Virus record (IMG/VR): IMGVR_UViG_3300025782_000009 | DNA length: 11,396 nt | Source of the DNA: a virus | Taxonomy: Duplodnaviria > Heunggongvirae > Uroviricota > Caudoviricetes | Strand: one strand, 5' to 3' | Part shown: one piece after another, positions 2,645 to 5,923 of the stretch | Position numbering within the stretch: position 1 is the first letter of the stretch | Layout of the letters: every line of letters begins with the position of its first letter | Position numbers and translations under genes: made by a program | The notes under the pieces: model-generated | Database searches by the model: none | The model's input: the letters and a program-made list of their open reading frames with translations, nothing else | Told to the model about the DNA's origin: nothing

Positions 2645-4113
2645 CTACGTCTTTTCCAGTATTGAGGCTCTTCTTCCTCATCACTGGGTAATCTTAAAAA
2701 CCCACCTTGCCTAAATCTAATCAACGCCTGGCTTGAGCTATCCACATAGTCATCATGTTCCGCGTTAGGGAACCTGGCCATCTCTTCAATTAAATCATCC
2801 GCCCACCGTTTATCTGGTGCCCACACCTTACCTGAATTAAACAAATCCGCCACGCTATTAAGACGTACAAATTTGTCATTTCCACGAGTAGGAGTGTACT
2901 CGCTAACCGGTATTCCCATCTGTCTTAATTCAAACACAAGCGGCGCACCAGCTGCCTTAGCCTCAACAATAAACGCATCAGGCTGCCATTCTTTATATCC
3001 TTCCAGCGCAGCTTTCTTAAGTTGAGGAAACTCCAACTTATCTCTATACGCATCAAGGAGAATAATATGCTTATCTGTTGGGTCTTCATTTAAACTAAAC
3101 ACGCCCCAGGTCGTACAAGCCGAATAGTCAGCGCGTTCCGATTTTGTAAATGCGGTATCCCAACTCTGAATAATAAAATCACAAGGCGGCGGCATCTCAC
3201 TCTTCCATCTCTTCCACGATTCTCGCTTAATAATCGCGCCCTCTTCACCAGTCGGCTGCTGTTGATACTGGGCATTCCACTTATAAACCCCAATCTCTTC
3301 CTTAACCGCCATCAATTCCTTGAGCGGCCAAAACTCAGGCCATAGCGGATTTCCACTTGGCATAATCGCCGGTAACTCAATCACCTCCCAGTCCTCGCCG
3401 GAGGCGTTACGCAAAATTTTTCCCGTTAAGTCTTTATCCGACCACCGGGTCATCACGATTACAATCCTACCCCCTGGTTGTAAACGTTGACGCGGGCCAG
3501 ACGTATACCATTCAAACACGGAATCAAAAACTGTAGGATCTCCCTGGGCTAATCTCGCCTCCTGTTCAGAATGCGGATCGTCAATAATCATTAAGTCCGC
3601 GCCCTTACCAGTCATCGTACCGCCCACACCAATCGCTATATATTCACCTTGAGCATTGGTATTCCACTTACCAGCGGCCTTACTATCAGCAGCCAAAGCA
3701 ATACCAGGAAAGATAGAATCGTATTGCTCGCTATCCACCAAATTACGAACCTTTCTACCAAACCCAACAGCCAGATCGGCAGTGTTACTCGACTGGATAA
3801 CTTTTTTATCAGGATAGTTACCCAGGAACCAGCTAGGCAAAAGGTAAGATGCAAACTCAGACTTAGTATGCCGAGGAGCCATATTGATAATAAGACGCTT
3901 AAGATTTCCATGTACAACCTCTTCAAATTTTTTAGCCATCACAGCGTGGTGTCTGCCGTGCACAAAACCCGGCCACATAAATTTTACATACTCAAGGAAA
4001 TTCGCCTGACACTTCTCCCTTGTCAACGCTTCCTTATATTGCGCCATCTGAGCCAAGAATTTCTCCTGCTCATTCACCGGCAACTTAGCCAATAAATCTT
4101 CAATCTGGGACAT
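2632..4113 (-). CDS. terL: Terminase large subunit
   Basis: Walker A-like INMAPRHTKSE, Walker B LMIIDDPH, motif III/coupling region VMTRW, and RNase H-like nuclease acidic residues in SWDTAF, IVEAKAAG and HDDYVDS. The start is placed at ATG 4113, 6 nt from an AGGA RBS, rather than the track's TTG at 4116. Confidence 0.95.
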   Translation of the reverse strand: MSQIEDLLAKLPVNEQEKFLAQMAQYKEALTREKCQANFLEYVKFMWPGFVHGRHHAVMAKKFEEVVHGNLKRLIINMAPRHTKSEFASYLLPSWFLGNYPDKKVIQSSNTADLAVGFGRKVRNLVDSEQYDSIFPGIALAADSKAAGKWNTNAQGEYIAIGVGGTMTGKGADLMIIDDPHSEQEARLAQGDPTVFDSVFEWYTSGPRQRLQPGGRIVIVMTRWSDKDLTGKILRNASGEDWEVIELPAIMPSGNPLWPEFWPLKELMAVKEEIGVYKWNAQYQQQPTGEEGAIIKRESWKRWKSEMPPPCDFIIQSWDTAFTKSERADYSACTTWGVFSLNEDPTDKHIILLDAYRDKLEFPQLKKAALEGYKEWQPDAFIVEAKAAGAPLVFELRQMGIPVSEYTPTRGNDKFVRLNSVADLFNSGKVWAPDKRWADDLIEEMARFPNAEHDDYVDSSSQALIRFRQGGFLRLPSDEEEEPQYWKRRRAYY

Positions 4114-4501
4114 CAAGTTTCCTAAAATTTATATACACCGGCCGCACACTTCTCTCCATCCCCCGCATCTTCTTTAATACGCCAAGTTTAATAAGCCGCT
4201 CAATTATTTCATGCGTACTCCCCAAACTCCTACTTCCGCGGTACTCCATCACCTCCCTCACAGTCGGCCCATATCCCCTCTTCTTCCAATACTCATCAAT
4301 GAATATAAATACGTTTGCTTGATTTTTTGTCATCTTAAGTTCTAAACACTGTTCATAATTTAGATCACTTCGTTTACTTATCATCTTAGGATTTAATACT
4401 TTTGGATAGTCGCATACCAAACGTTTGGCATGACCCCCCACGAAAGTATTAGATTTGGGCATCGTTTTGCTTTTAACGAATGATAAATTATTACTGTTCA
4501 T
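4100..4501 (-). CDS. LexA-type winged helix-turn-helix DNA-binding protein lacking the peptidase S24 domain
   Basis: MTKNQANVFIFIDEYWKKRGYGPTVREVMEYRGSRSLGSTHEIIERLIKLGVLKK...RSVRP matches the LexA N-terminal pattern LTxRQ...GYPPSVREI...S...HL..L...G.I. The true start is uncertain: there are several in-frame ATGs and no clear SD. The 3' end overlaps the terL start. Confidence 0.75.
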   Translation of the reverse strand: MNSNNLSFVKSKTMPKSNTFVGGHAKRLVCDYPKVLNPKMISKRSDLNYEQCLELKMTKNQANVFIFIDEYWKKRGYGPTVREVMEYRGSRSLGSTHEIIERLIKLGVLKKMRGMERSVRPVYINFRKLDVPD

Positions 4502-5338: not shown

Positions 5339-5367
5339 TATTGCAAGGGCTAATAATCCATGCAATA
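5339..5367. promoter_or_regulatory. Palindromic operator-like site 1: TATTGCA-N15-TGCAATA
   Basis: Perfect 7-bp inverted repeat. A second copy with identical spacing is at 5426-5454. Confidence 0.55.
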
Positions 5368-5379
5368 GGTTTTACCTAT
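5365..5379. promoter_or_regulatory. Palindrome ATAGGT-TTT-ACCTAT between the divergent promoters
   Basis: Perfect 6-bp inverted repeat with a 3-nt spacer, overlapping the right arm of site 1. Confidence 0.35.
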
Positions 5380-5410
5380 CAACTCCCGATTCTCAGTGAA
5401 AAAATACAAT

Positions 5411-5438
5411 TAGACAAGGTAAACATATTGTATAGAAT
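5411..5438 (+). promoter_or_regulatory. Strong sigma70-like promoter for the small-ORF array
   Basis: TAGACA-N16-TAGAAT, each 5/6 to consensus, with an A-rich UP-like tract upstream. It lies about 45 nt before the ATG at 5484. Confidence 0.65.
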
Positions 5439-5454
5439 AAACGTTAATGCAATA
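5426..5454. promoter_or_regulatory. Palindromic operator-like site 2: TATTGTA-N15-TGCAATA, covering the -10 and predicted start site of the rightward promoter
   Basis: Same half-sites (one mismatch) and same 15-bp spacer as 5339-5367. Confidence 0.55.
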
Positions 5455-5483: not shown

Positions 5484-5744
5484 ATGACACAACACCAGTG
5501 GAACACCGGCAGACAATACGACCAATATGGTCAAAGGATGATCGCAACAGTGACAGAGGAAGGAATACAGTTTTCAGACCTCTCCCGGCACATTGATGGA
5601 CTAATCCCGCTTGGCGCGTATATGCGAGGCTCAGACCTGGACAAGCGCACCATTGAAGATTTAGTAATGTTCAACTACGACCAGGGCAACTACACCGGCA
5701 ACAACAAAACGCTAATTTGGCAAGGTCTACTGATGAGCCGTTAA
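5484..5744 (+). CDS. Small hypothetical phage protein (NTGRxY...GQR type); the last codons overlap the hammerhead ribozyme
   Basis: 86 aa, AGGAG RBS at 5471, first gene after the promoter. The C-terminal GLLMSR* is encoded by the ribozyme's stem I 5' arm, core and stem II. Confidence 0.75.
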   Translation: MTQHQWNTGRQYDQYGQRMIATVTEEGIQFSDLSRHIDGLIPLGAYMRGSDLDKRTIEDLVMFNYDQGNYTGNNKTLIWQGLLMSR

Positions 5745-5773
5745 TCGGCGAAACCCCGCGAGGGGTCTAGATC
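5724..5773 (+). ncRNA. Type I hammerhead ribozyme, cleavage predicted after GUC at 5765-5767
   Basis: Stem I 5' arm GGUCUA (5724-29). Core CUGAUGA (5730-36). Stem II GCCG/CGGC with a UUAAU loop (5737-49). Core GAAA (5750-53). Stem III (A)CCCC/GGGG(U) with a GCGA GNRA loop (5753-66). C17 is 5767. Stem I 3' arm UAGAUC (5768-73). All conserved core nucleotides and all three helices are present. Confidence 0.92.
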
Positions 5774-5791
5774 AACTTAGGAGCTTAAACA

Positions 5792-5923
5792 ATGTACTCA
5801 GCACAAATAAACTCATTCGGAAACATTATCGTATGCAAGGGCTGCGAGGTTCGCAACTCATACCGCATTATTTTCACTGGTACTTATAACGAGTGCTTGG
5901 CGCTTAAATTCAAAGGAGTTTAA
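5792..5923 (+). CDS. 43-aa hypothetical protein, first gene downstream of the ribozyme cut (not in the ORF track)
   Basis: MYSAQINSFGNIIVCKGCEVRNSYRIIFTGTYNECLALKFKGV*. It starts in a perfect junction repeat, and its stop lies inside the next one. Confidence 0.75.
   Translation: MYSAQINSFGNIIVCKGCEVRNSYRIIFTGTYNECLALKFKGV

Follow-up and report, generated by a model that had tools for sequence, protein, structure and literature searches.

The junction between the first two genes of a small-gene operon in a tailed phage (Caudoviricetes) sequence carries a complete, canonical type I hammerhead ribozyme of 50 nt. Given its observed motif, fold, covariation, strand and gene context, this element is probably a ribozyme that cleaves itself constitutively and so divides the gene 1 message from the remaining operon transcript, a reading in which transcription, cleavage and the effect on RNA fate are the steps that we infer. 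The window, that is, the whole stretch of 11,396 nt analysed here, represents most of the 11.7-kb IMG/VR virus record IMGVR_UViG_3300025782_000009, which is about 19% complete.

Minus-strand genes of the window include those encoding the portal, the large terminase, a protein with a LexA-type DNA-binding domain and the small terminase. The large terminase exhibits 54-56% identity with those of Pelagibacter phage HTVC027P and two other aquatic phages. From about position 5400, a plus-strand run of small ORFs without family match extends convergently towards minus-strand primase and helicase genes, and PHROG and Pfam searches with the small proteins of this operon returned no match. A sigma70-like promoter candidate was found about 300 nt upstream of the ribozyme, at the distance given in an earlier note made from the same DNA. 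Its -35 and -10 positions are conserved in relatives, with a variable spacer, and no terminator-like site was detected from this candidate through the ribozyme, nor at any position before 6238. The same note described the transcript as "early", which is overstated, as this timing was deduced solely from the sigma70-like promoter and the small ORFs. The region comprises the following features:

5411-5438, plus strand: candidate sigma70-like promoter of the small-gene operon, TAGACA-16-TAGAAT (consensus scan, 10 of 12 matches).
5484-5744, plus strand: gene 1, 86 aa, family F15 (from the ORF list; no Pfam or PHROG match).
5724-5773, plus strand: type I hammerhead ribozyme, 50 nt (sequence, minimum-energy fold, descriptor and shuffles, covariation, and 75 bits with its own covariance model).
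5774-5791, plus strand: generic junction cassette with the Shine-Dalgarno sequence AGGAG (5779-5783), common to ribozyme-free junctions.
5792-5923, plus strand: gene 2, 43 aa, family F7, the first gene on the predicted 3' product (from the ORF list).

Within the ribozyme, all on the plus strand, the elements are arranged as follows:

5724-5729 with 5768-5773, plus strand: stem I, GGUCUA/UAGAUC, 6 bp including one G-U.
5730-5736, plus strand: core CUGAUGA, with C3, U4, G5, A6, N7, G8 and A9 all satisfied.
5737-5740 with 5746-5749, plus strand: stem II, GCCG/CGGC, 4 bp, with loop UUAAU; the stem-loop spans 5737-5749.
5750-5753, plus strand: GAAA, providing G12, A13, A14 and the A15.1 of the A15.1-U16.1 pair (U5766).
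5753-5757 with 5762-5766, plus strand: stem III, ACCCC/GGGGU, 5 bp, with the GNRA loop GCGA; the stem-loop spans 5753-5766.
5767, plus strand: C17 (H17, core numbering) of the GUC cut site.
5767/5768, plus strand: predicted scissile bond after GUC (hammerhead numbering, established chemistry).

All 13 invariant hammerhead positions are present, the helices are uninterrupted, and mispairs adjacent to the core are absent. The topology is that of type I, with an open stem I carrying both the 5' and 3' ends and stems II and III closed by loops. The minimum-energy RNA fold of 5712-5780 is exactly the hammerhead three-way junction. Sequence and fold thus agree with the earlier note on every core coordinate, including the three helices, the GNRA loop, the cut between 5767 and 5768, and the numbering of G5 (5732) and G12 (5750). 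A consensus core, no core-adjacent mispair and no bulge in short stems, the acceptance rules of PMC3088659, all apply to this element. A hammerhead descriptor retrieved a single match across the window, on the plus strand only. The proposal of a canonical, sense-strand type I hammerhead in a multi-gene operon is supported. Relaxed to stems of at least 3 bp and a looser core, the descriptor gave 24 matches in 3000 dinucleotide shuffles, or about 0.008 per window. No other known ribozyme or RNA family was detected in the window at E values up to 1, and the 11.7-kb record (about 19% complete) contains this one hammerhead only, a gene-bracketing array being defined by at least two on one strand. 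Two further candidate roles were considered and rejected. Trans-cleavage of other junctions was examined with the substrate 12-mer, which at up to three mismatches had 5 matches against 5.67 expected, none of them on the plus strand except the ribozyme itself. A larger structured RNA containing the hammerhead was also dismissed since the junction leaves no space for it: coding sequence enters the 5' side, and the ribosome-binding site (RBS) cassette adjoins the 3' side.

Rfam searches of the window identified no family at or above its gathering score. Hammerhead_1 (RF00163) had no match on the window at E values up to 10; Hammerhead_3 (RF00008) reached 26.1 bits against a threshold of 48.5, with a wrongly permuted alignment; and the RAGATH-1 hammerhead (RF03152), which consists of an extra 5' hairpin and a hammerhead, scored 16.2 bits against 56.3 (E = 2 on 201 nt). 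The same library (Rfam 15, gathering thresholds) reported none of the type I hammerheads found by descriptor in 12 other loci (L005, L013, L040, L061, L064, L081, L092, L097, L102, L111, L120 and L126), where it recovered four Pistol ribozymes. The miss in the window is therefore a sensitivity gap and not counter-evidence, and current Rfam models do not seem to cover the type I hammerheads of aquatic phages.

Protein-anchored and pattern searches identified the element in three further viral contigs, one with a near-identical copy and two (L005 and L013) with copies that share 74% identity with that of the window across the 50 nt. The 13 variable columns comprise six in loops II and III and seven in stems, and the 13 core positions are free of variation (P about 0.01). 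Every stem difference preserves pairing, with three pairs changed on both sides and one G-U to A-U switch, and loop III is a GNRA tetraloop in some copies and a UNCG-pattern tetraloop (UCCG or UUCG) in others. Paired cells amount to 100%; shifting the 3' partners by one to three columns lowers this to 24-38%. In a shuffle control, 19 of 500 shuffles matched the observed covariation score, a comparison of limited power with only three distinct lineage sequences. The unchanged core and fully compensated stems are the outcome that the earlier note had proposed to look for among related phages. A covariance model built from the three lineage sequences detected no degraded copies in 14 related loci devoid of the element. 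Its presence is patchy, with four lineage contigs carrying it and at least ten related contigs having neither the element nor remnants of it. A megablast search of the region gave no match, blastn against phage records returned only chance-level similarities (E of 3 or more) and thus no cultured relative with the element, and no additional convincing hammerhead emerged from a pattern scan that covered Pelagibacter phage HTVC027P together with four related contigs. An unrelated 26-kb viral contig (L010:12515-12569; also L012) has a hammerhead that shares stem I and the core but differs in its 8-bp stem III and its GGAA loop II; it begins directly after an ORF stop codon, and neither an RBS nor a start codon is obvious in the next 45 nt.

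The element is tightly packed between its neighbours. The 5' half of the ribozyme doubles as the last six codons of gene 1 (GLLMSR) and its stop codon, the UAA (5742-5744) sitting in loop II. In L005 and L013, the stop codon adjoins stem I. The C-terminus of gene 1 is unrelated to that of its homologue in L008, which is devoid of the ribozyme, and judging from these sequences the overlap seems to have arisen as a by-product of recombination, at the expense of the native C-terminus. Because the stop codon lies upstream of the cut, the 5' product would still be a complete mRNA. On the other side, the layout from the ribozyme end to the gene 2 start codon gives the predicted 3' product a 24-nt leader, made of the 3' strand of stem I and the AGGAG cassette and predicted to be unstructured; if the ribozyme is active, this product begins with UAGAUCAACUUAGGAGC, as the earlier note had it. 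The junction cassette also precedes other genes of the window, as well as the same gene in ribozyme-free relatives.

Comparison with relatives revealed an operon that is a mosaic of small gene cassettes joined by this repeated RBS cassette. Gene 2 homologues occur as the first gene, after a plain hairpin or after a hammerhead. Three hammerhead arrangements were found: F15, hammerhead, F7 (the window); F22, hammerhead, F7; and F22, hammerhead, F2. The hammerhead follows the first gene in all three, while the upstream (F15 or F22) and downstream (F7 or F2) genes are exchanged, and families F15, F7 and F2 are also present in relatives without a hammerhead. Since neighbours are exchanged on either side and the ribozyme is retained, it is a discrete 50-nt module, and the existence of close relatives without it indicates that it is dispensable. 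At ribozyme-free junctions (L005:2955-2985 and L006:2757-2785), a 7-bp hairpin with a CUUG tetraloop and no U-tract follows gene F2 directly 5' of the same RBS cassette; this hairpin also occurs upstream of F7 in L020 and L021. This hairpin may fill the same functional place as the hammerhead, either stabilising the 3' end or serving as an RNase site.

A metagenome scan whose pattern constrained nothing beyond the core and the first three pairs of stem I returned more than 119 loci; 101 of 122 raw matches also formed all three stems, and 103 unique hammerheads, from aquatic metagenomes, were retained. A Shine-Dalgarno sequence, start codon and ORF were found within 45 nt after the cut in 63 of the 93 hammerheads with sufficient downstream sequence (median 29 nt), against 14% at random positions. 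An upstream ORF ended between -90 and +45 nt of the stem I start in 94 of 95 cases, mostly within a few nucleotides and usually 3-5 nt before stem I or within stem I or the core. The layout common to this set is thus a stop codon, the ribozyme, then a ribosome-binding site and start codon, and 21 contigs carry 2-5 same-strand hammerheads bracketing 1-4 genes. In 14 of 94 hammerheads (loci L029-L147), the upstream stop codon begins 5-8 nt into the element, a position at which the UGA of the CUGAUGA core could act as the stop codon.

Stem I is short and rich in A and U. In thermodynamic folding that included 30-100 nt of flanking sequence, its probability in the window copy was 0.01-0.23, against at least 0.73 for stems II and III. 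A tertiary contact between stem I and loop II is needed for fast hammerhead cleavage at physiological Mg2+. No clear contact of this type was seen, the best candidate being a 4-bp pairing between loop II and the 3' tail (UUAA with UUAG) that has 5 bp in L005 and 3 bp in L013. Complementarity between loop II and the 3' tail was mildly enriched across the metagenome set (3.65 versus 3.15 bp). The earlier note had also extended stem I through a bulge (5712-5719 with 5773-5780), a proposal that is not supported: the extension costs +2.1 kcal/mol over the hammerhead alone, is absent from the minimum-energy fold, reuses C5773, is out of register in relatives and is unenriched across the metagenome set, where complementarity between the 5' flank and the 3' tail was 3.81 versus 3.79 bp. 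Because no clear tertiary contact was seen and the tail of the best candidate is the generic cassette, the cleavage rate could be low at physiological Mg2+. A near-copy of the ribozyme 3' end (GTCT-TAGATCAACT) was observed within gene F22, about 20 nt upstream of the hammerhead, in L005 (2624-2640) and L013 (4019-4035). Its TAGATC could pair with the 5' strand of stem I as an alternative hairpin, and stem I is indeed replaced in the long-context minimum-energy fold of L013; the window copy has no such repeat.

In the proposed mechanism, the operon would be transcribed from the sigma70-like promoter near 5411-5438, and the 50-nt junction would fold once RNA through 5773 has emerged and cut itself after C5767. 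Hammerhead cleavage leaves one product with a 2',3'-cyclic phosphate end and the other with a 5'-OH end. The 5' piece would be a gene 1 mRNA of about 320 nt, still with its stop codon and with hairpins II and III followed by the cyclic phosphate at its 3' end. Hairpins hinder 3' exonucleases, and a cyclic phosphate end is without the 3'-OH that poly(A) polymerase requires. The 3' piece would be the downstream multi-gene mRNA, starting with a 5'-OH and the 24-nt unstructured leader that contains the gene 2 ribosome-binding site. A likely effect would be that the stability and translation of gene 1 become independent of those of the remaining operon; another would be to provide gene 2 with a context-free leader, as with synthetic ribozyme insulators. 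Any protection of the 3' product by its 5'-OH, including the resistance to RNase E suggested in the earlier note, would depend on the RNases of the host. In the glmS work of Collins and colleagues from 2007, a 5'-OH end was reportedly destabilising in hosts with RNase J1.

The proximity of stop codon and ribozyme raises an alternative in which ribosomes on gene 1 hold the hammerhead unfolded and cleavage takes place mainly when gene 1 is untranslated, the cut being a sensor of translation status and not a constitutive event. Ribosomes terminating in loop II must unfold the ribozyme, and the positions of the stop codon in loop II here, next to stem I in L005 and L013, and 3-5 nt before or inside stem I in most of the metagenome set would all suit such gating, as a ribosome terminating there would, given its established footprint size, occupy stem I and the core. 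This reading is nonetheless unlikely: tight packing is normal in phage operons and calls for no regulatory interpretation, the stop position varies by lineage between loop II and just before stem I, the arrangement of the window looks like the result of accidental recombination in which gene 1 had its native C-terminus replaced, and short ribosome-free intervals suffice for an irreversible cleavage. There is a similarly small chance that the hammerhead is a device specific to the first junction, kept after the first gene of the operon whatever its neighbours, and that ribosome traffic on gene 1 times the release of the downstream mRNA; if so, it would be a natural switch linking translation to RNA self-cleavage.

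Less probable still is a module that spreads by recombination at the repeated junction cassettes and cuts RNA with little or no benefit to the phage. Its patchy distribution (four lineage contigs against at least ten related ones without remnants), a 3' boundary that coincides with the generic cassette of ribozyme-free junctions and the exchange of genes on both sides are what such hitch-hiking would produce, but copies at 74% identity keep a perfect core with every stem change compensated, which indicates purifying selection on activity, and the position after the first gene is constant across the three arrangements. That the element is non-catalytic in vivo, with hairpins II and III acting as a 3' stabiliser or a site for host RNase or protein and the core being fortuitous or a dead relic, is the least credible reading, for the plain 7-bp CUUG hairpin at the equivalent junction of ribozyme-free relatives, the predicted weakness of stem I in long context and the subthreshold Rfam scores are outweighed by the conservation of 13 of 13 core positions across 26% divergence, not expected of a relic, by a very low chance expectation and by the failure of Rfam models on every other canonical type I example tested.

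The proposed constitutive self-cleavage between genes 1 and 2 can be compared with several known systems. In the early genes of T7, intergenic RNase III sites split the early transcript into mRNAs with hairpin-protected 3' ends. The present locus resembles them by an intergenic cut that would yield separate mRNAs, also with hairpin-protected 3' ends. It is not a member of this class, as T7 uses long imperfect hairpins and a host enzyme that leaves 5'-phosphate and 3'-OH ends, whereas self-cleavage here would generate a 5'-OH and a cyclic phosphate.

Hammerheads flanking prophage and phage genes were proposed to cut polycistronic RNAs into gene-length mRNAs, and cleavage was demonstrated for native transcripts of about 2 kb and, both in vitro and within E. 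coli, for native polycistronic prophage RNA (Perreault et al. 2011, PMC3088659). Hammerheads located between genes of phages have been on record since that year, and the locus fits the polycistronic-processing architecture published by these authors: a full consensus core, a location between same-strand genes of a phage operon, variable neighbours and a proposed processing role are shared, in contrast to its occurrence as a single copy in the 11.7-kb record and not as a gene-bracketing pair or triple, its very short type I stems and its overlap with the upstream coding sequence; cleavage is a prediction in the present case. About 40% of the hammerheads in that census were predicted to use a pseudoknot (PMC3088659). 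The hammerhead of haloviruses HF1 and HF2 (HHphage) lies 13 nt upstream of the first early gene, and a transcript 5' end maps within three nucleotides of the cut (PMC3088659). The proposed role is alike, and in HHphage the mapped 5' end coincides with the cut; HHphage is nevertheless a core variant from an archaeal virus placed before the first gene, whereas the window copy is canonical and located between genes 1 and 2 of a virus that presumably infects bacteria. The view that no role had been characterised at such a position, expressed in the earlier note, is contradicted by both the polycistronic cutting and the HF1/HF2 hammerhead (PMC3088659).

In E. coli, the RiboJ insulator was reported to roughly double transcript abundance and to raise protein levels 2-10 fold (PMC6206723). 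As in insulators of this type, the hammerhead of the window is located just upstream of a ribosome-binding site, where its cleavage would remove the upstream context and leave a short, defined 5'-OH leader. RiboJ, by contrast, was engineered from the sTRSV hammerhead with a 23-nt hairpin added after the cut, and the leader of the window is predicted to be unstructured. The glmS ribozyme is likewise a self-cleaving RNA in a bacterial mRNA whose 5'-OH product sets mRNA fate, but it requires a metabolite cofactor, and its cleavage destabilises the downstream mRNA (PMC6765202); a 5'-OH is thus not protective in every host. The biological role of bacterial and phage hammerheads has been described as largely elusive (PMC6765202), and their function was still unproven according to a 2019 review. 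Close relatives of the phage described here offer a natural comparison, with the same gene 2 behind a primary 5' end, a plain hairpin or a hammerhead, which in principle permits a direct test of the effect of the cut on mRNA level and translation.

Two additional observations concern neighbouring elements and the metagenome set. A 3.8-kb metagenome contig (L120:1-3816) carries five canonical type I hammerheads (33-88, 415-468, 825-888, 1203-1257 and 2832-2889) and four Pistol ribozymes (2149-2228, 2449-2513, 3382-3453 and 3719-3789; 44-66 bits), all on one strand and at a density of about one per 400 nt. In the window, the LexA-type protein (133 aa; 4100-4501, minus strand) is encoded between terL and terS, with a Pfam score of 36.8 bits for the DNA-binding domain and a PHROG annotation as "transcriptional repressor". 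Palindromes of the TGCAAT/ATTGCA type occur on both sides of the divergent promoter region (5339-5454) in the window and in relatives, which, together with the LexA-domain protein, suggests from sequence that the small-gene operon may be under repressor control.
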